Below are positions 21,594-32,981 of a stretch of 64,000 nucleotides of DNA, in pieces. The stretch lies in assembly GCF_024223415.1 (NCBI RefSeq), contig NZ_CP100500.1; one strand, written 5' to 3'. The position numbers were made by a program, and so were the translations under genes. The notes under the pieces are model-generated. The model had not been told where the DNA came from. It worked only from the letters and a program-made list of their open reading frames with translations, and did no database searches. Each line of letters begins with the position of its first letter. The first letter of the stretch is position 1. This DNA is from Escherichia coli. Lineage in GTDB: Bacteria; Pseudomonadota; Gammaproteobacteria; Enterobacterales; Enterobacteriaceae.

Positions 21594-24500
21594 ATGGGTA
21601 AAGGCAGCAGTAAGGGGCATACCCCGCGCGAAGCGAAGGACAACCTGAAGTCCACGCAGTTGCTGAGTGTGATCGATGTCATCAGCGAAGGGCCGATACA
21701 AGGACCGGTGGATGGATTAAAAAGCGTGCTGCTGAACGGTACGCCGGTGCTGGACAGTGAGGGGAATACCAATATATCCGGCGTCACGGTGGTATTCCGG
21801 GCCGGTGAGCAGGAGCAGACGCCGCCGGAGGGATTTGAATCCTCCGGCTCCGAGACGGTGCTGGGTACGGAAGTGAAGTACGACACGCCGATTACCCGGA
21901 CCATCACGTCGGCAAACATCGACCGTCTGCGCCTGACCTTCGGTGTGCAGGCACTGGTGGAAACCACCTCAAAGGGGGACCGGAATCCGTCGGAAGTCCG
22001 CCTGCTGGTTCAGATACAGCGTAACGGTCGCTGGTTAACGGAAAAAGACATCACCATTAAGGGCAAAACCACTTCACAGTATCTGGCTTCGGTGGTGGTG
22101 GATAACCTGCCGCCGCGCCCGTTCAGTATCCGGATGCGCAGGATGACACCGGACAGCACCACAGACCAGCTGCAGAACAAAACGCTCTGGTCGTCATACA
22201 CCGAAATCATCGATGTGAAACAGTGCTACCCGAACACGGCACTGGTCGGTGTGCAGGTGGATTCGGAGGAGTTCGGCAGCCAGCAGGTGAGCCGTAATTA
22301 TCATTTTCGCGGGCGCATTCTGCAGGTGCCGTCGAACTATAACCCGCAGACGCGGCAATACAGCGGTATCTGGGACGGAACGTTTAAACCGGCATACAGC
22401 GATAACCCGGCCTGGTGTCTGTGGGATATGCTGACCCACCCGCGCTACGGCATGGGGAAACGTGTTGGCGCAGCGGATGTGGACAAATGGGCGCTGTATG
22501 TCATCGGCCAGTACTGCGACCAGTCGGTGCCGGACGGCTCTGGTGGCACGGAGCCGCGCATCACCTGTAATGCCTGGCTGACCAGGCAGCGTAAGGCGTG
22601 GGATGTGCTCAGTGATTTCTGCTCGGCGATGCGCTGTATGCCGGTATGGAACGGGCAGACGCTGACGTTCGTGCAGGACCGACCGTCGGATAAGGTGTGG
22701 ACCTATAACCGCAGTAATGTGGTGATGCCGGATGATGGCGCGCCGTTCCGCTACAGCTTCAGCGCCCTGAAGGACCGCCATAATGCCGTTGAGGTGAACT
22801 GGAGTGACCCGGATAACGGCCAGGAGACGGCGACAGAGCTTGTGGAGGACACGCAGGCCATTGCCCGTTACGGTCGTAACGTCACGAAGATGGATGCCTT
22901 TGGCTGTACCAGCCGGGGGCAGGCACACCGCGCCGGGCTGTGGCTGATTAAAACGGAGCTGCTGGAAACGCAGACCGTGGACTTCAGCGTGGGTGCCGAA
23001 GGGCTTCGCCATGTGCCGGGCGATGTCATTGAAATCTGTGATGATGACTATGCCGGTATCAGCACCGGTGGGCGCGTGCTGGCGGTGAACAGCCAGACCC
23101 GGACGCTGACGCTCGATCGTGAAATCACGCTGCCATCCTCCGGTACCACGCTGATAAGCCTGGTTGACGGAAGTGGCAATCCGGTCAGCGTGGAGGTTCA
23201 GTCCGTCACTGACGGCGTGAAGGTGAAAGTGAGCAGTGTTCCTGACGGCGTTGCTGAATACAGCGTGTGGGGGCTGAAGCTGCCGACGCTGCGCCAGCGC
23301 CTGTTCCGCTGCGTGAGTATCCGTGAGAACGACGACGGCACGTATGCCATCACTGCCGTGCAGCATGTACCGGAAAAAGAGGCCATCGTGGATAACGGGG
23401 CGCACTTTGACGGCGACCAGAGCGGAACGGTGAATGGTGTCACGCCGCCAGCGGTGCAGCACCTGACCGCAGAAGTCACCGCAGACAGCGGGGAATATCA
23501 GGTGCTGGCGCGCTGGGACACGCCGAAGGTGGTGAAGGGCGTGAGCTTCCTGCTTCGCCTGACCGTGGCAGCGGATGACGGCAGTGAGCGGCTGGTCAGC
23601 ACGGCCCGGACGACGGAAACCACATACCGCTTCAGGCAACTGGCGCTGGGGCGTTACACGCTGACGGTCCGGGCGGTAAATGCCCGGGGGCAGCAGGGAG
23701 ACCCGGCGTCGGTATCGTTCCGGATTGCCGCACCGGCAGCGCCGTCGCGGATTGAGCTGACGCCGGGCTATTTTCAGATAACCGCCACGCCGCATCTTGC
23801 GGTTTACGATCCGACGGTACAGTTTGAGTTCTGGTTTTCGGAAAAGCGGATTACCGATATCAGGCAGGTTGAAACCACAGCCCGTTATCTTGGTACCGGA
23901 AGGCAGTGGCTTGTCTCCGGCCAGAATATTAAACCTGGCCATGATTATTACTTTTATATCCGCAGTGTTAACACTGTCGGTAAATCGGCATTCGTGGAGG
24001 CAGTCGGTCGGGCGAGTAATGATCCTGCCGGTTACCTTAATTTTTTCAGGGGGGCGATAAATAAAACGCATCTGGGACGGGAGATCAATGAACGCATTGA
24101 TGCCTCTGCACGGCGCACTGAAGTTGAGCAACTGGAGAATGCGATTAACCGCGAAATGACGCAGCTGGAGAAAGATGTGAGGCAGCGTGCGGAGCGTGAT
24201 ATCGCAGAGGTGACGAAAAAAATCACGGCGTCTGAAAACAGCATAACGGAACTGGTGGCGAAAAAGAGCGGTGAACAGTCAATGGCCATTGCGGAAGTTG
24301 ACAGAAAAGTTGACAGGATGGGAAGCGAAATCCGGCAGACAGTAAGCAGGAGCACGGAGGAGAACAGCCGACAGATAGCGCAGATCAGACAGTATGTTGA
24401 TGATAAGGGAAGTCAGATCACACAGAGCACGGATAAAAAACTGGGATCCTGGAATGCCAGCATTGAGCAGATACAGAAAGTTCAGGAGGACACGCGCCGG

Positions 24501-25325
24501 AACCTGAACAGCATGTGGGCTGTGAAGCTGCAGCAGACACGGGATGGACGTCTCTATATTGCAGGTATTGGTGCCGGAATCGAAAATACGTCTGACGGAA
24601 TTCAGAGTCAGATCCTGATGCAGGCAGATCGTATTGCGATGATTAACCCGGAAAATGGCAATACAACACCTTTGTTTGTAGCTCAGGGTGATCAGCTGTT
24701 CATGAATGATGTTTTCATGAAGCGACTGTTTGCGGTGAGTATCACCTCATCCGGCAATCCCCCGGCATTTTCCCTGACACCGGACGGGCGTCTGACGGCG
24801 AAAAATGTCGATATCAGTGGTAACGTGAATGCGAATTCGGGCTCGCTCAACAACGTCACGATTAACGAGAACTGTCGGGTTCTGGGAAAACTGTCTGCAA
24901 ACCAGATTGAAGGCGATCTCGTTAAAACAGTGGGTAAGGCTTTCCCCCGTGACTCCCGTGCACCGGAGACGTGGCCATCAGGGACCATTACCGTCAGGGT
25001 TTATGACGATCAGCCGTTTGACCGGCAAATTGTTATTCCAGCGGTGGCTTTCAGGGGGGCCAGACATCCGCGGAAGGATAAGGAGCCTTATTCGTCATGC
25101 CGCCTGATAGTGAAGAAAAACGGGGCTGAAATTTATAACCGAACGGCTCTGGATAATACGCTGATATACACGGGTGTTATTGATATGCCTGCAGGCAGTG
25201 GCGTAATGACACTGGAGTTTTCGGTATCAGCATGGTGGGTAAATGGCTGGTATCCCTCAGCAAGTATCAGCGATTTGCTGGTTGTTGTGATGAAGAAAGC
25301 CACTGCAGGCATCACGATTAGCTGA
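21594..25325 (+). CDS. J: Central tail fibre / host specificity protein J
   Basis: 1243 aa with conserved J N-terminal domains; C-terminal ~350 aa is the receptor-binding region. Confidence 0.9.
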
Positions 25326-25383: not shown

Positions 25384-27198
25384 ATGGCGGCTGTAAAAAT
25401 TTCAGGCGTGCTGAGGGACGGAACCGGAAAACCGGTACCGGGATGCATTATTGAGCTGAAAGCGAAGAGAACCAGCGAGACAGTCATCGCCACGACAGTG
25501 GCTTATGGCATGCCGGAAGAGACGGGGAGTTACAGTATGGATGTGGAGCCAGGAATATACAGGGTGACACTCAATACAGAAGGTTACCGTCCTTCGTATG
25601 TGGGAGATATCGTGGTCAGGGAGGATTCTTCACCGGGAACACTGAATAAATTTCTGATGGAGATGGAAGATGCTCCTTATTATCCGAAGGCGTTGTCAGA
25701 GCTGGAGGCTGTGGTGCAGTCCATACTGCACAGAGCAGAGTCCGCGGCATCTGAGGCGGAGGAAGCCCGGAAACGAGCTGCATCTGCCCGGGGACCACGA
25801 GGAGAGAAAGGGGATACTGGTGCTCGTGGTGAAAGAGGCATTACCGGGCCACAGGGGCCAAAAGGTGAAACAGGAGCACGTGGCCCGGCAGGACCACAGG
25901 GACCAAAAGGTGAAACAGGTGAACGCGGTCCGGCAGGTCCACAGGGACTAAAGGGCGATACAGGTGAACGCGGCCCGGCAGGTCCACAGGGACCAAAGGG
26001 TGAAACAGGTGCACGCGGCCCGGCAGGTCCACAGGGAGCAAAGGGCGAAACAGGTGAACGCGGCCCGGCAGGTCCACAGGGAGCAAAGGGCGAAACAGGT
26101 GCACGTGGTCCGGAAGGCCCTCAGGGTCTGAAGGGAGAAAAGGGTGAGCGAGGAGAAAAAGGCCCTAAGGGGGATAAAGGAGATCCGGGAGGTCCACAGG
26201 GACCAAAGGGGGATACAGGTGAACGCGGCCCGGCAGGTCCACAGGGATCAAAGGGCGATACAGGTGAACGTGGCCCGGCAGGTCCTCAGGGACCAAAGGG
26301 GGATACAGGTGAACGTGGCCCGGAAGGTCCACAGGGAGCAAAGGGTGAAACAGGTGAACGCGGCCCGGCAGGACCACAGGGACCAAAAGGTGAAACAGGT
26401 GAACGCGGTCCGACAGGTCCACAGGGAGCAAAAGGTGAAACAGGAGCACGCGGTCCGGCAGGTCCTCAGGGACCAAGAGGAGAGTCAGCCCGTGGACAAC
26501 TGCTGAATGGTGATCTGAACCGACTGGGACGAGTGACCGATCAGGGTGATTATTATCAGCCATCAGACAGTGGGGCTACACGAGAAAATAATTATCCGAT
26601 TCAGAGAGCGGGTTATCTTCAGGTAAGAGTTGGTGCATGGGGATATTGCCAGCATGAATATACAACCTGGAACCCACCACGAAAGTTCGTAAGAACTGTT
26701 ACTGGTAATTTTACCGGTAATGGCCCCTGGTCTGAATGGAAAGAGCTGGGAGCCCAGGGGGAGCGTGGTCCACAGGGACCAAAAGGTGAAACAGGTGCAC
26801 GCGGTCCGGCAGGTCCACAGGGGCCAAGAGGGTATACAGGTGAACGCGGGCAGACAGGTCTACAGGGGCCAAGAGGGTATACAGGTGAACGCGGTCCGGC
26901 AGGTCCACAGGGGCCAAGAGGAGAAGCGGGGCGGCCAGCGAGCGTCGGAAGTGTTTATTCCGTGGGGTCTTATGTTCTGGGGATCATAGAACGAAATCAT
27001 GAGATAACAAATACCCGTCAAATACCCGGGTATCGTATCAGACAGGCCGTTATTGTGTCGTCGTCATCGGATAAACTTACAGATATCCGCTTTTTATTTG
27101 GCAATCCTATGCTTGGTACATGGATGTTATGCACAACTAACATGACGGTGAATAATATCATTGGGACGATTTGGGGCCTGTTTCAGAGAATACGGTGA
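25384..27198 (+). CDS. stf: Side tail fibre protein with collagen-like Gly-X-Y repeats (Stf N-terminus)
   Basis: N-terminus [29 protein letters not shown] resembles lambda Stf; then long runs of [16 protein letters not shown]. Confidence 0.85.
25790..26490 (+). repeat. Collagen-like (Gly-X-Y)n coding repeats inside stf; second block at ~26750-26935
   Basis: Tandem 27-bp units encoding [16 protein letters not shown] and variants; these create spurious ORFs in other frames. Confidence 0.85.
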
Positions 27199-27212
27199 CA
27201 GGGGAGAAATGA

Positions 27213-27788
27213 ATGAAGGTCGATAAAATCACGTCACCAGTGTGGGCTGACAGGGGTCATACGACCATAAACTGTATAGTGAAGTTTTCAGACGCGGAAA
27301 CAGAATGTGTATTTACAGCAAGTGCGGATGATCCTGAGTCTTACGGTCGTGAAATATTTGAAGCCTGCATAAGAGGTGATGCAGGGCCGGTAGGTGAGTA
27401 CCGGGCAAATGATGATATGGCTGTGGAAGAAGCACGCAGGATGAAAAACGCGGAGATAAATGCCTGGCGTGATGCGATGGAGGCGTCAGGGTATGTTTTT
27501 GAGCACAGAGGACGGAAATGGGATTATGGAAAGGAAACCATGACACGTCTTGGAATGTCGGCATCAGCGGCCAGAGGCGGTGTGTTGCCGGAAGGATTTT
27601 TCTGGACGGACGCAGAGAATAATGATGTACCGATGACGGCAGATGAACTGATATCCCTGAGTGATGCTGCTGGTAAAGCGATGTTCAGGAAAGGCCTTGA
27701 AATACATATAAGGCAAAGGGAGATGAAAAAGGCAATAGCAGAACTGAGTGACAGTGAAACCATTCTGGCGTACAGGGTTGGATGGTGA
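27213..27788 (+). CDS. Hypothetical protein downstream of stf (possible tail-fibre assembly or accessory protein; not lambda Tfa-like)
   Basis: 191 aa with SD GGGGAG; sits where tfa would be but lacks the Tfa sequence pattern. Confidence 0.6.
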   Translation: MKVDKITSPVWADRGHTTINCIVKFSDAETECVFTASADDPESYGREIFEACIRGDAGPVGEYRANDDMAVEEARRMKNAEINAWRDAMEASGYVFEHRGRKWDYGKETMTRLGMSASAARGGVLPEGFFWTDAENNDVPMTADELISLSDAAGKAMFRKGLEIHIRQREMKKAIAELSDSETILAYRVGW

Positions 27789-28534
27789 AACTGATAAAAA
27801 AACCCCTCTGAAAATTCTGTCAGAGGGGGGCAAGGATCTATATTTATTATGCAGTAATGCTTTCACTCCGGTAATTAATTTCCGTGATTAACTGCTTTCG
27901 ATCAATAAAGGAATTGCAAAAAGGTGATCTTGTTCACGACATCGTGGATGATAATATGCCTGATGTCTGAATCCGGAAACAGTGATCTGGCGGGTTTCAT
28001 GTGAAGTTGACGGATAAAAAAATCCGCACGACCAGACAGACGTGCGGTTTACGAAATTCGTAACAAGAGGCTTTTCTACGGATCACGTGGTGCGTGCCAC
28101 GTGAAATTTTTGTAGCGCAAAATGTGTAATGTGTAAATACAAGGAAGGAAAAAGTTAAATCGGTGGAAGTCCATGCCTGCCACATGTATGTCTGCATTCC
28201 TCGTTTTGAACAGAATTCTCACCAGACATCGTGAATTTCTCATTCAATCATCAGAGATATTAACCAGGATTTTTATTGTTTTGTGATATCAGCAGTGCAG
28301 GTATACAGACATTAAAGTAATCAGGTTTATTATAACCACCTTTACAAAGTTGTATGTGTTTATAATTTAAGGATTTTAATCCCAGTCGTTTTCTGCTGCT
28401 TAAATTGAGGGCGCATATTATACACAATAATATTCCTGGCATTATTAAATTAATAAAAGAGGATTCTTATCACTGTATTTTTGCTCCGCACTACCGTTCT
28501 GGCTGGTGAAGTAATAATACAGGAGAATAACAGA

Positions 28535-29644
28535 ATGCTTAAAAGACGTGATGCTTTTTTAAAGAAAAGCGCGCTGGCAGTGAGTGTGGCCCTGCTGCTC
28601 TCATCTCAGGCTTCGGCTCATAAAACAATTACTGATTCAACGGCGGGTATTATCTGGATTGATGGTGGCGGTCAGTCACTTGAAAAAGTAGCTGTGATTG
28701 ACCGTCAACTAAATGATACAGGATATAATTTTGCCGTAGGTAGTGGTGCAGCAATTCTGGATGCGGATAAATCCATGGCAACAGGAAATAATACAGCTGT
28801 TTTTAATGCAGACAACAGTGTCGCTCTGGGGTATGGCTCTCAGGTGAATGGAGAAAGCAATGTACTTTCTGTAGGGGCCGGTCCTTCAGGATATGGATTT
28901 TCAGTTGATGGTGCACCGGAAACCCGCCGGATTATAAATGTTTCAGATGGTGTTAAGGATAGTGATGCGGCCACAAAAGGACAGATGGACAACGCCATTG
29001 CAGATGCTGTACGGGAGTCGGGGGATGCCCTGCGCGGTGAGATAGGAGCTGTCTACCGTGATGCTGTTGCTGATGCTAAGAGTCGAGTGGAATCGGCAGA
29101 AAACAGACTTAACGGTAATATTACAGCTGCCAGGGCTTCTGCGCAGGAATACACGGATGCGGTGAAGTCGGATGTTCTGGACGAGACGCGTACATATACA
29201 GACAGCAGTGTGCGTACTGTCCGTAACGAGGTGAAAAGCCAGGCAGAACATCTCAGCGATGTGCTTGTGAAGAACAGGGCGCAGACGGATGCAGCAATAG
29301 CCTCAAATACAGCAGCGATAAGGAATAACAGTCATCGTCTGGATTTGACGGAAGCCTGGCAGAAGATGGCGACAGAGAGAATGAATAATATGCAGGAGCA
29401 GATTAAAGAGAACCGGAAGGAGTTAAGGGAGAGTGCAGCCCAGAGCGCGGCACTGGCCGGTCTTTTCCAGCCATACAGTGTTGGAAAATTTAACGCGACA
29501 GCAGCCGTTGGTGGTTACCGTGATGAGCAGGCCATTGCGGTGGGCGTGGGCTACCGTTTCACAGAGAATGTGGCAGGAAAAGTTGCAGTTGCTGCAGGTG
29601 GGTCATCCGCATCGTGGAATGCTGGTGTGAATTTTGAGTTCTGA
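28535..29644 (+). CDS. Trimeric autotransporter adhesin, YadA-like (Eib-family-like)
   Basis: Signal peptide, head/neck motifs (INVSDGVKDSDAATKGQMDNAIAD), coiled-coil stalk and C-terminal anchor ending AGVNFEF; SD AGGAGA. Confidence 0.8.
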   Translation: MLKRRDAFLKKSALAVSVALLLSSQASAHKTITDSTAGIIWIDGGGQSLEKVAVIDRQLNDTGYNFAVGSGAAILDADKSMATGNNTAVFNADNSVALGYGSQVNGESNVLSVGAGPSGYGFSVDGAPETRRIINVSDGVKDSDAATKGQMDNAIADAVRESGDALRGEIGAVYRDAVADAKSRVESAENRLNGNITAARASAQEYTDAVKSDVLDETRTYTDSSVRTVRNEVKSQAEHLSDVLVKNRAQTDAAIASNTAAIRNNSHRLDLTEAWQKMATERMNNMQEQIKENRKELRESAAQSAALAGLFQPYSVGKFNATAAVGGYRDEQAIAVGVGYRFTENVAGKVAVAAGGSSASWNAGVNFEF

Positions 29645-29704
29645 CAGGTCAGGATTTAGATATCTGTCCCGGGGGAGTCCCCCGGGATATAATGAGGTAC
29701 AGAG

Positions 29705-30160
29705 ATGCTGGATATAATCCTGGCGACGAGAGATATTTATTTTGAAAAAGCCCTGCGAGAGATATTTGGAACCGTAAGCAGTCGAATCAGATATATAGAA
29801 GATGCCATATCAGACAGAAGAAGGGTGCAGTCAGGCAGGTCATTCAGATATTATTTTGTATTCTGTGATGATGAGTATACAGATATTGTTCGTATTCTTT
29901 TTACCGGAGAGGCCTGCTGTATTCTGAATAAGTCGATGCTGAATCTGAGAGCGGCCGGAGGTGTGTTGACGCTGGAAGAGCGCAGAGCGGTACTGAACCG
30001 GTATTACAGAGGTTTAAGTATTGCGGAGATTACAGAAGAGACGGGGCAGAATGACAAGACGGTATACGGTCATCTTCGTCGTGCACTGCAGCGGTCTGGA
30101 TTCCGGAAGGGGCGTTTTATAAAGGGGAGAGAAGCTGCGGGGGATTCAGGTGTTGAATAA
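29705..30160 (+). CDS. Putative transcriptional regulator with sigma-70 region-4/LuxR-type HTH
   Basis: C-terminal LTLEERRAVLNRYYRGLSIAEITEETGQNDKTVYGHLRRALQR; preceded by palindrome cccgggggagtcccccggg. Confidence 0.6.
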   Translation: MLDIILATRDIYFEKALREIFGTVSSRIRYIEDAISDRRRVQSGRSFRYYFVFCDDEYTDIVRILFTGEACCILNKSMLNLRAAGGVLTLEERRAVLNRYYRGLSIAEITEETGQNDKTVYGHLRRALQRSGFRKGRFIKGREAAGDSGVE

Positions 30161-30543
30161 TGTATCTTATATTGTGATATCGGTGCTGCTGCTGTTATTT
30201 TTTGTTGTATTTGTGACGAATGGTTAAGAATAAAACATGAGCTGGTGATTATCAGGACAGGTTGCTTGTATATGAAGATAACAAAGGCGGCATTTATTTT
30301 TGCGCTGTCAGTGTGGAGTGTTGCTGTGATATGTCTTTTATTATTTGTACTGGTTGTTCTGGGATAGCTATAGTGGAATTATTATTTTTTTAAGACTATG
30401 GTTTATATTTTTATTCGGCAATATTTCTGTAAACAATTAAATATCAGAAAGGCGTGTTGTATGCGTGAACACGCCTGAGTATGTATACAGAGATTGTTAA
30501 TTTGGAGAGAATAATTACAGTTGTTATTTATTTGACGTCCTGA

Positions 30544-30792
30544 TTAGTGAAAAAACCAGTCATCAGCAGTTTCCCAGACTTCCTGCAGCGTTTCCTGTAT
30601 GAACTTCTGAGCGTTTTCTTTATCTACGGCTCTTAAAATGGTCAGTCCGTCATTACTGGCGGATTTTACTATAACCTCCACATCGTCATATCGTTTTCTG
30701 ATACGGCGAGACATTTCCTGTTGTAGAGCAGGTACAGAGCCTTTTGGCATTTTGCTGAATTTTTCTTTAGCGATACAGATCTCAACACGCAT
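30544..30792 (-). CDS. DinI-like protein
   Basis: 82 aa [16 protein letters not shown]...[14 protein letters not shown] resembles DinI; SD GGAGGG. Confidence 0.85.
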
Positions 30793-31005
30793 AACCCCCT
30801 CCTGTAACTGTAGTTATGTACAGGTGTTATTTTTAGCTGTGTGGATAACCAGTGTCAATTGGTAATATTGCCTATGGGGCATGTATGGGACACTTTTTAT
30901 CGGCGAAATCCGTCGAAGTTCGTCGACATCGAAAACGAATCATCTGTCCAACCCTTGAAAAATGGCGCTCCTGGACGATCTTCGTCGATTTTTAAAAATG
31001 TTGCG

Positions 31006-31074
31006 TCACGCGCGTAACGTGACAGGATTAATATCACAAAGCAACGCCACTTCACCAATTGTGTAAAGCGCCAT
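31006..31074 (-). pseudogene. mlrA: mlrA (yehV) 5' fragment, truncated after codon 23 by prophage insertion
   Basis: Minus-strand ATG at 31074 encodes MALYTIGEVALLCDINPVTLRA then a stop; this matches the MerR-type MlrA N-terminus as recalled, and the sequence to the left is phage. Confidence 0.7.
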
Positions 31075-31295
31075 CGTCTCACCCTTGCTCGCGAGGTCCC
31101 GGTTTAACTTTAGACGCAGTTTTGCGAACCAGGTAGTTTTGCCCGTTTTTTGTGCATCTATAGGGTGATTTTATTTTTGCCAGGCGATTTTGAGTGATCG
31201 TACTCACGAATTCTCATTTTTCTGCAAGAGTTCAAAGAAAGTTAAACGCAGGCAATGTATGTTACGCGTTTTAAAGGGAAGTGTGGTTTGCGGGT

Positions 31296-32981
31296 ATGTA
31301 CGATTTTAATCTGGTGTTGCTGCTGCTTCAGCAGATGTGCGTTTTTTTAGTCATTGCATGGTTAATGAGTAAAACGCCATTATTCATACCGTTAATGCAG
31401 GTCACGGTTCGTCTGCCGCATAAATTTCTCTGCTACATCGTCTTTTCCATCTTCTGCATCATGGGCACCTGGTTTGGGTTGCACATTGACGATTCTATTG
31501 CCAATACCCGTGCGATAGGCGCGGTAATGGGCGGCTTACTCGGCGGTCCGGTCGTCGGTGGGCTGGTTGGGCTGACCGGCGGCTTACATCGATATTCGAT
31601 GGGGGGCATGACCGCGTTAAGTTGCATGATCTCGACCATCGTTGAAGGATTACTCGGTGGCCTGGTACACAGCATCCTGATCCGCCGCGGGCGCACTGAT
31701 AAAGTCTTTAACCCCATTACCGCCGGTGCCGTCACGTTCGTCGCTGAAATGGTGCAAATGCTGATCATCCTTGCGATCGCCCGACCTTATGAAGATGCGG
31801 TGCGTCTGGTGAGTAATATTGCTGCGCCAATGATGGTCACCAATACCGTCGGCGCGGCGCTGTTTATGCGTATATTGCTCGATAAACGCGCGATGTTTGA
31901 AAAATACACTTCGGCTTTTTCTGCCACTGCGCTGAAAGTGGCAGCCTCGACGGAAGGCATTTTGCGCCAGGGGTTTAACGAAGTGAACAGCATGAAAGTG
32001 GCTCAGGTGCTGTATCAGGAACTGGATATTGGTGCAGTCGCGATTACCGATCGAGAGAAATTGCTGGCCTTTACCGGAATTGGTGACGACCACCATTTAC
32101 CCGGCAAACCGATTTCTTCAACTTATACTTTAAAAGCGATTGAAACCGGTGAAGTGGTCTACGCTGATGGCAACGAAGTACCTTACCGTTGCTCTTTGCA
32201 TCCGCAATGCAAACTGGGGTCGACGCTGGTAATTCCGTTGCGTGGTGAAAATCAGCGGGTGATGGGCACCATCAAATTGTATGAAGCCAAAAACCGTTTA
32301 TTCAGTTCAATCAACCGCACGTTGGGTGAGGGGATTGCGCAATTGCTTTCGGCGCAGATCCTTGCCGGGCAATATGAGCGGCAAAAAGCGATGCTCACCC
32401 AGTCAGAGATCAAACTGCTTCACGCCCAGGTGAATCCCCATTTTTTGTTTAATGCGCTTAACACCATTAAAGCGGTGATCCGCCGCGACAGCGAACAGGC
32501 CAGCCAGCTGGTGCAGTATCTTTCCACTTTTTTCCGCAAAAACTTAAAGCGGCCTTCGGAGTTTGTTACTCTCGCCGACGAAATTGAACATGTGAATGCT
32601 TATCTGCAAATTGAAAAGGCGCGCTTCCAGTCGCGGTTGCAGGTCAACATTGCTATTCCGCAAGAATTATCCCAGCAGCAATTGCCCGCGTTTACCCTGC
32701 AACCGATAGTGGAAAACGCCATTAAACATGGGACATCACAACTGCTGGATACAGGGCGAGTGGCAATCAGCGCCCGACGTGAGGGGCAACATTTGATGCT
32801 GGAGATCGAAGACAATGCCGGTTTGTATCAACCGGTAACCAATGCCAGTGGGCTGGGGATGAATCTGGTGGATAAGCGTTTACGTGAACGGTTTGGCGAT
32901 GACTATGGAATAAGCGTCGCCTGTGAGCCTGATAGTTACACCCGAATAACGTTACGACTACCATGGAGGGACGAGGCATGA
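31296..32981 (+). CDS. btsS: Sensor histidine kinase BtsS (YehU), LytS family
   Basis: 561 aa; 5TM-LytS, GAF and HisKA_3/HATPase domains; followed by a LytTR regulator. Confidence 0.95.

Follow-up and report, generated by a model that had tools for sequence, protein, structure and literature searches.

Does the adhesin gene that follows the tail-fiber genes of this Escherichia coli prophage encode an immunoglobulin-binding Eib protein, and does the small gene that comes next encode a dedicated regulator of the adhesin? The Eib proteins, reportedly described by Sandt and Hill, are immunoglobulin-binding trimeric autotransporters (TAAs) of E. coli prophages, and the initial annotation of the DNA analyzed here (a 64-kb stretch, hereafter the window) had placed an Eib-like adhesin with a putative regulator at positions 27789 to 30160. 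Taking the evidence as a whole, the best explanation, and one that we consider probable, is that this segment, which lies at the right end of a lambdoid prophage inserted into mlrA, is a cargo ("moron") module. The cassette represents a sister form of the eib loci in the ECOR-9 prophages and not a new system.

The cassette and its prophage setting

A leader, a TAA gene, a palindrome, and a 151-aa ORF had been described in this segment, and all of them were recovered at the same positions. These features are not chance products, because the ORFs have strong homologues. The cassette and its neighbors are laid out as follows.

21594-25325: tail-fiber protein J
25384-27198: collagen-like fiber
27213-27788, plus strand: tail-fiber assembly gene (orf-191/DUF4376 family), left border of the cassette
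27789-28534, plus strand: AT-rich noncoding leader of 746 bp, the presumed TAA promoter, regulatory region, and 5′ UTR
27803-27828, minus strand: terminator-like hairpin for leftward transcripts; only the minus strand carries the T7 tail
28016-28047, minus strand: second terminator-like hairpin (CCGCACG, a 10-nt loop, and CGTGCGG, then A-T7 on the minus strand)
28083-28104, plus strand: terminator-like hairpin (TCACGTGG...CCACGTGA, then AAATTTTTG; fold z-score, -2.55)
28473-28522, plus strand: 5′-UTR hairpin (inverted repeat I1; -18.8 kcal/mol; z-score, -2.2)
28535-29644, plus strand: TAA gene, 369 aa (from Pfam, NCBIfam, PDB anchor, and Eib comparisons)
28535-28618: signal peptide (aa 1-28)
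28718-28888: YadA-type beta-roll head of four repeats (approximately aa 62-118)
28910-29008: neck (approximately aa 126-158)
29009-29458: uninterrupted coiled-coil stalk (aa 159-308)
29459-29641: beta-barrel anchor (aa 309-369)
29667-29687, no strand assigned: GC-rich perfect palindrome, 10+1+10 (TCCCGGGGGA-G-TCCCCCGGGA), between the TAA and regulator genes
29705-30160, plus strand: 151-aa orf-156-family protein (from Pfam, hhalign, and an AF2 model)
29705-29932: truncated receiver-like alpha/beta domain (aa 1-76)
29963-30097: helix-turn-helix (HTH) of the LuxR/sigma-70 region 4 type (aa 87-131)
30150-30227, plus strand: hydrophobic ORF of 25 aa (VLNNVSYIVISVLLLLFFVVFVTNG) that overlaps the regulator stop codon
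30272-30367, plus strand: 31-aa single-transmembrane ORF (MKITKAAFIFALSVWSVAVICLLLFVLVVLG)
30544-30792, minus strand: DinI-like gene, found in the prophage form rightward of the cassette and before the mlrA junction

The adhesin gene had been placed after the tail-fiber genes, and indeed protein J, the collagen-like fiber, and the assembly gene all precede 27789. The assembly gene shares 57% identity with orf-191A of prophage P-EibA and matches PHROG 1141 (tail fiber) with an E value of 1e-62, and its last 80 bp (27709-27788) accompany the cassette into island copies. At the other end, homology with the island copies stops at 30379, 12 bp past the stop of the 31-aa ORF. The DinI-like gene (NCBIfam PRK10597; E, 1e-18) is found at the right end of P-EibA too.

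From left to right, the module consists of the tail-fiber assembly gene, a long leader, the TAA gene, a hairpin, the orf-156-family gene, one or more small membrane ORFs, and dinI. This order matches that of the eib loci in the ECOR-9 prophages (orf-191, leader, eib, hairpin, orf-156, and orf-60), an architecture common to four eib loci (eibA, eibC, eibD, and eibE) and phage PhiR12_3; the slot, the presence of hairpins in the leader, and the small transmembrane ORF at the end are likewise shared, although the equivalent of orf-60 is positional only. In this regard, the 25-aa ORF corresponds in position to orf-60, which in eib loci overlaps the stop of orf-156, and the 31-aa ORF may be related to the C-terminal transmembrane segment of orf-60, as suggested by a weak alignment (22 to 28% identity). 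The 25-aa ORF is intact in eight of eight copies, which are too alike (98 to 100% identical) to show selection on either small ORF. The cassette differs from the eib loci in its leader DNA, which has no similarity to the eib leaders, and in its downstream regulator, which is approximately 22% identical to orf-156. PADLOC returned no defense-system match; a match to BrxC (E, 0.002) was coiled-coil noise.

The downstream gene and the control of the cassette

The 151-aa protein had been said to end in something resembling sigma-70 region 4, and this was borne out by a match of residues 87 to 130 to Pfam Sigma70_r4_2 (E, 4e-7). A sigma factor proper was rejected, given that region 2 is missing and only region 4 matches; NCBIfam sigma models scored 16 to 21 bits against cutoffs of 43 to 222, and the model gives the N-terminal half an alpha/beta receiver-like fold instead of a helical sigma-2 domain. 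On the strength of pairwise and profile alignments, the protein is a divergent homologue of orf-156, and a gene of this type follows every eib gene. The two families align full length and collinearly (hhalign, 94.4%; E, 8.4e-8; 129 aligned columns), with a pairwise BLAST E value of 2e-4 and a match of PHROG 6585 to the N-terminal half (E, 3e-4), and they have in common the invariant columns T8, Y12, E14, R40, D55, G68, L88, T89, E92, G114, K118, T119, V120, and L124. Like ORF-156 (PHROG 6585), the protein is short (151 versus 156 aa), follows a TAA, carries an N-terminal ILATR-x-x-Y-x-E motif, the invariant D55, and an LT-x-x-E...G-x-x-x-KTV motif in its HTH, and is followed by a small transmembrane ORF overlapping its stop. 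Unlike ORF-156, it lacks an insertion of approximately 15 residues before the HTH, and it scores on Pfam Sigma70_r4_2, while the orf-156 proteins match no Pfam family. Whole-database searches (word-indexed, and full HMMER over 1.84 billion representatives) returned only relatives at least 88% identical and four marginal HTH matches; since orf-156 was missed there, the link needed pairwise and profile comparison. The 151-aa family appears to be confined to E. coli and its mobile elements.

An AF2 model of the protein (pLDDT, 76), based on an alignment whose 19 rows included 17 orf-156 proteins with identities to the query of only some 22%, has only four strands (residues 2-7, 28-30, 49-54, and 70-75); a single-sequence model was unusable (pLDDT, 37). 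In the receiver-like domain the invariant D55 follows beta3. The C-terminal HTH is of the LuxR/GerE type found in NarL/FixJ regulators, but the receiver is not a complete phospho-acceptor domain: unlike NarL/FixJ and small LuxR regulators (EvgA, RcsB, NarL, and GerE), the protein lacks beta5, alpha5, and the conserved Lys, carries T-R-D/N in place of the acidic pair after beta1, and has no partner kinase. At the sequence level, it belongs to no curated family. We picture it as a putative small DNA-binding regulator whose receiver-like domain would probably act independently of phosphorylation. Its most likely target would be the cassette's own AT-rich control region, where it could exert positive feedback or counter-silencing. 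That it serves as the adhesin's own regulator, as the initial annotation had proposed, is plausible from the conserved synteny and the predicted DNA-binding fold.

How the gene might be expressed depends on the GC-rich palindrome, which had been noted after the adhesin gene and is a perfect one: its 10-nt arms are 100% complementary (-27.6 kcal/mol; z-score, -2.6). It is not a canonical terminator, because no U-tract follows; by contrast, the hairpin at the same position in real eib loci is a proper terminator. The palindrome could serve as a read-through attenuator, stabilize the RNA as a hairpin, or be bound by a dimeric protein. The half-site has no further exact copy in the 64-kb window, and a second copy as a possible operator was sought in the cassette at zero or one mismatch, with none found. 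The TAA-regulator intergenic region spans 60 bp, and GAGG lies 6 nt 5′ of the regulator ATG. From this spacing, the hairpin lacking a T-run, and the GAGG, the two genes are probably cotranscribed, with the 151-aa gene expressed at least in part by read-through from the TAA gene, which would couple the level of the regulator to that of the adhesin. Given the terminator in the eib loci, cotranscription is not a family rule. Alternatively, a perfect TATAAT (29688-29693) directly 3′ of the palindrome, before the GAGG, could be the regulator's own promoter. In other genomes, IS421 and IS3 insertions hit this intergenic region.

A possible alternative, although not the one that we prefer, is that the genes controlled by the 151-aa protein lie mainly outside the cassette, with the protein acting as a cross-regulator reporting to the host that the adhesin is on. 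MrpJ and PapX, which are encoded at the ends of fimbrial operons, repress motility, and the Psr proteins are prophage-encoded LuxR-type regulators of enterohemorrhagic E. coli; the position of the 151-aa gene 3′ of a structural gene, together with the probable read-through, resembles the MrpJ/PapX arrangement. Moreover, a 98 to 100% identical protein is kept behind very different passengers and leaders (as in strain Ch1, with another leader and head), and one orf-156 relative (P0172) has no called TAA gene alongside. However, the 151-aa/orf-156 family is otherwise tightly linked to TAAs, its members sitting after a TAA in prophages and on plasmids and the 151-aa gene being at least 99% conserved behind TAA alleles that differ in head and stalk length. 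This reading and self-regulation are compatible with each other.

For self-regulation, the presumed site of action is the leader. Some 750 bp of AT-rich noncoding DNA had been reported before the adhesin gene; we find 746 bp at 37.7% GC, falling to 33.1% over 28200-28534, versus 50.5% for the window. The leader is near full length in 371 of 5,426 E. coli genomes, with no annotated feature under the match in the 40 records listed among these carriers, and neither it nor the regulator block matched any of 50,697 phage records. In a seven-copy alignment the leader is a mosaic, with near-invariant blocks at 27863-28100, 28186-28288, and 28389-28534 and variable parts at 27829-27862, at an 84-bp indel (28102-28185), and at a dimorphic segment of approximately 100 bp (28289-28388). 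The hairpin at 28016-28047 (inverted repeat I6) lies within the first block, is unvaried in the seven copies, and is convergent with that at 28083-28104. The hairpin at 28473-28522, the 3′ arm of which abuts and overlaps the Shine-Dalgarno sequence AGGAG (28521-28525), shows one noncompensated 3′-arm substitution in one of the seven aligned copies and otherwise no variation, so that conservation gives it no support.

The first of these blocks raises a further possibility, one that we rate a little lower, namely, that 27863-28100 and its convergent hairpins encode one or two small RNAs or a small protein. This invariant 240-bp block was found at 511 places in 370 genomes with 98 to 99% identity while the adjacent leader segments vary; T7 tails follow two hairpins on the minus strand and a T5 tail follows one on the plus strand, and fold z-scores reach about -2.5 on both strands. 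Those z-scores are modest, however, and an Rfam scan of 27000-31300 gave no match at E values up to 1. The block is never found apart from this TAA, it holds no convincing conserved small ORF, and its near-identical copies yield no covariation signal.

One speculative extension, which we hold only tentatively and as rather unlikely, is that the TAA, its neighboring regulator of the mini-LuxR type, and the small membrane peptide form a self-contained, E. coli-confined expression module in which the pseudo-receiver regulator (orf-156 family) binds the conserved cassette palindromes and drives adhesin expression by feedback in a phase-like manner, with passengers (heads and 33-aa stalk repeats) swapped by recombination before a constant anchor/regulator/peptide unit. 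If so, the orf-156 proteins would supply the local regulator that is missing throughout the Eib/Cla/Yal group of adhesins.

The adhesin and its relation to Eib proteins

The TAA starts at ATG 28535, preceded by AGGAG at 28521-28525; a mechanical ORF list puts the start at TTG 28481, and PGAP annotates the 369-aa form in SMS-3-5. The protein had been assigned to the YadA family, and this assignment stands. Pfam YadA_anchor matches aa 311 to 369 over the full model length (E, 2.2e-16), the YadA_stalk (neck) model matches with an E value of 4.5e-4, the YadA_head repeat matches weakly (E, 0.069), and the YadA anchor structure (PDB 2lme) matches with an E value of 1.2e-17. Read by eye, the N terminus is signal-peptide-like (MLKRRDAFLKKSALAVSVALLLSSQASA, then HK). 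The protein thus has the parts of a TAA/Oca family member: signal peptide, head, neck, coiled-coil stalk, and a YadA-type anchor of four beta-strands per monomer. From what is known of the family, it would be exported via Sec by its 28-aa signal peptide, trimerize through a 12-stranded barrel anchor of the Eib clade, and display at the surface a short "lollipop" with a four-repeat head, a neck, and approximately 150 residues of uninterrupted coiled coil.

The protein was compared with EibA, EibC, EibD, and EibE of E. coli prophages (GenBank AF151091 and AF151674-6), and at the sequence level it is Eib-like in its anchor only. Its last 95 aa, comprising the anchor and the last coiled-coil heptads, are 65 to 69% identical to these four proteins, versus 46% for YadA, and the C-terminal 118 aa are 57% identical to EibA. 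The anchorless passenger, in contrast, is 27 to 28% identical to EibC and EibD (E, approximately 1e-6), versus 24.7% for YadA (E, 1e-6), and has no detectable similarity to the EibA passenger. EibC, EibD, and EibE also have a YadA-type beta-roll head and neck, as the window TAA does. However, the Eib N-terminal domain is absent from the window TAA, and so are the motifs LTRxEG, NDGLVAL (saddle), and RTDRIDxAxG (IgG-binding segment). The saddle minidomain is common to all Eib proteins (PMC12511318), and both LTRxEG and NDGLVAL are present in EibA, EibD, EibE, and a plasmid-encoded Eib-like TAA. In addition, Eib proteins have five or six Gly residues in the 55 to 100 residues before the anchor, whereas the window TAA has neither Gly nor Pro over 114 residues (195-308), its stalk running uninterrupted as in YadA. 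The EibD head/stalk structure 2xqh was not matched, and 2xzr was matched only with an E value of 0.21.

The initial annotation's "Eib-like" therefore holds for slot, gene order, and anchor and fails for the passenger, the N-terminal domain, and the saddle and IgG motifs; similarity to Eib beyond the anchor amounts to the low passenger identity to EibC and EibD, and measured against the initial annotation's own refuting condition on such similarity, the Eib claim comes close to failing. In the sense of immunoglobulin binding, the label is not sustained, the passenger being no closer to EibC and EibD than to YadA. We nevertheless considered whether this could be a genuine immunoglobulin-binding Eib whose pre-anchor coiled coil binds IgG Fc despite its divergence, which strikes us as improbable. 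The anchor and last heptads are of the Eib clade, as noted, and many family members are labeled "immunoglobulin-binding protein" in NCBI and UniRef, but such database names are similarity based. Over the equivalent of EibD 384-418, the IgG-Fc-binding segment with the motif RTDRID[YA]AxG, roughly one-third of 35 positions are identical by eye, with a 10-aa gap. The placement of this gap is ambiguous: residues 251 to 256 (TDAAIA) could align with IDAAVG of EibA, and in this alternative register the D-A pair at 252 and 253 is retained and could match the critical Asp. In EibG, the mutation D391A abolished Fc binding (preprint 10.64898/2025.12.25.695649). Against this, the three Eib motifs are all missing, and the related lineages ClaA and ClaB, in which the residues are not conserved, do not bind Fc. 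We infer a lack of immunoglobulin binding from this alignment, with its ambiguous gap placement. The most likely role of the TAA would instead be adhesion, autoaggregation, or shielding of the lysogen surface, because the Eib-specific parts are missing.

With YadA, the prototype lollipop TAA of Yersinia, the window protein shares its domain order and its long Gly- and Pro-free coiled coil, and its passenger identity to YadA is about the same as that to Eib. It differs in having only about four head repeats, in being prophage borne rather than carried on pYV under VirF/LcrF control, and in an anchor identity well under the Eib value; it scores 82 bits against the NCBIfam YadA model, far under the cutoff of 750. 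Closer in description are two lineages of EibG-like adhesins, Cla and Yal (Kotaka et al., bioRxiv 10.64898/2025.12.25.695649), which like the window TAA are without the Eib N-terminal domain; Cla is also without Fc binding. Cla proteins are said to possess a pronounced saddle and were delimited by their authors at >90% nucleotide identity and coverage, whereas Yal has no saddle, is of a function not established, and is said to group with Saa (10.64898/2025.12.25.695649). The description of Yal fits the window TAA, the two being compared by description only. Identity with ClaA or ClaB was rejected: the N termini derived from cloning primers (MKNNDRKY and MKINRHGI) differ from MLKRRDAF in the window, the ClaB C terminus (VNWEF) differs as well, and the primer-derived 5′ ends of claA and claB found no match in the window with up to three mismatches. 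The claA and claB primer sequences were also not found in IMG/VR.

Distribution, decay, and meaning

Approximately 3 to 7% of complete E. coli genomes carry the cassette, in most cases as a fossil of this prophage end lying in an IS-flanked island. Poultry and extraintestinal isolates commonly carry the adhesin clade, again mostly in that form. IMG/VR yielded a single locus, of the island form. In a species-representative genome collection, a first scan with family alignments confirmed nothing, and a second found one 601-bp contig in a Xanthomonas assembly (87% identity), probably a contamination. Many island copies are truncated or IS disrupted, consistent with a cassette that is often silent or dispensable. 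One could go further and regard the cassette as a silent, decaying relic with no current function, given that most copies lie in IS-ridden islands and that the AT-rich control region is typical of xenogeneic silencing. We think this unlikely. Both ORFs are intact in the window and in approximately 180 genomes, and the passenger alleles owe their diversity to 33-aa repeats that keep the frame and to exchanges of heads instead of frameshifts, which argues for selection on the displayed protein.

Finally, that the TAA-like protein might be a virion component (tail fiber or spike) and not a bacterial surface protein is so improbable that we rejected it: its gene adjoins the tail-fiber genes and gives weak tblastn matches (28% identity) to "tail fiber/agglutinating adhesin" proteins of lytic Salmonella phages, but it encodes a Sec signal peptide together with an entire YadA beta-barrel anchor, the 746-bp leader with its hairpins lies between it and the tail genes, and it is retained in islands devoid of phage genes.

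Eib-type adhesins contribute to serum resistance and chain-like adherence, and their expression varies with condition and strain; to our knowledge, no local regulator has been assigned for them. According to a recent preprint, they contribute to the virulence of LEE-negative Shiga toxin-producing E. coli. The "immunoglobulin-binding protein" label on hundreds of database entries in this clade rests on the anchor only. As judged from the alignments and the model, every eib-type gene is followed by an unannotated gene of a single truncated-receiver/LuxR-type family of predicted DNA-binding proteins, of which the 151-aa protein is the most easily recognized member. The practical importance of this is moderate. 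The orf-156-type family is a concrete, testable candidate for the local regulator of Eib-type adhesins.

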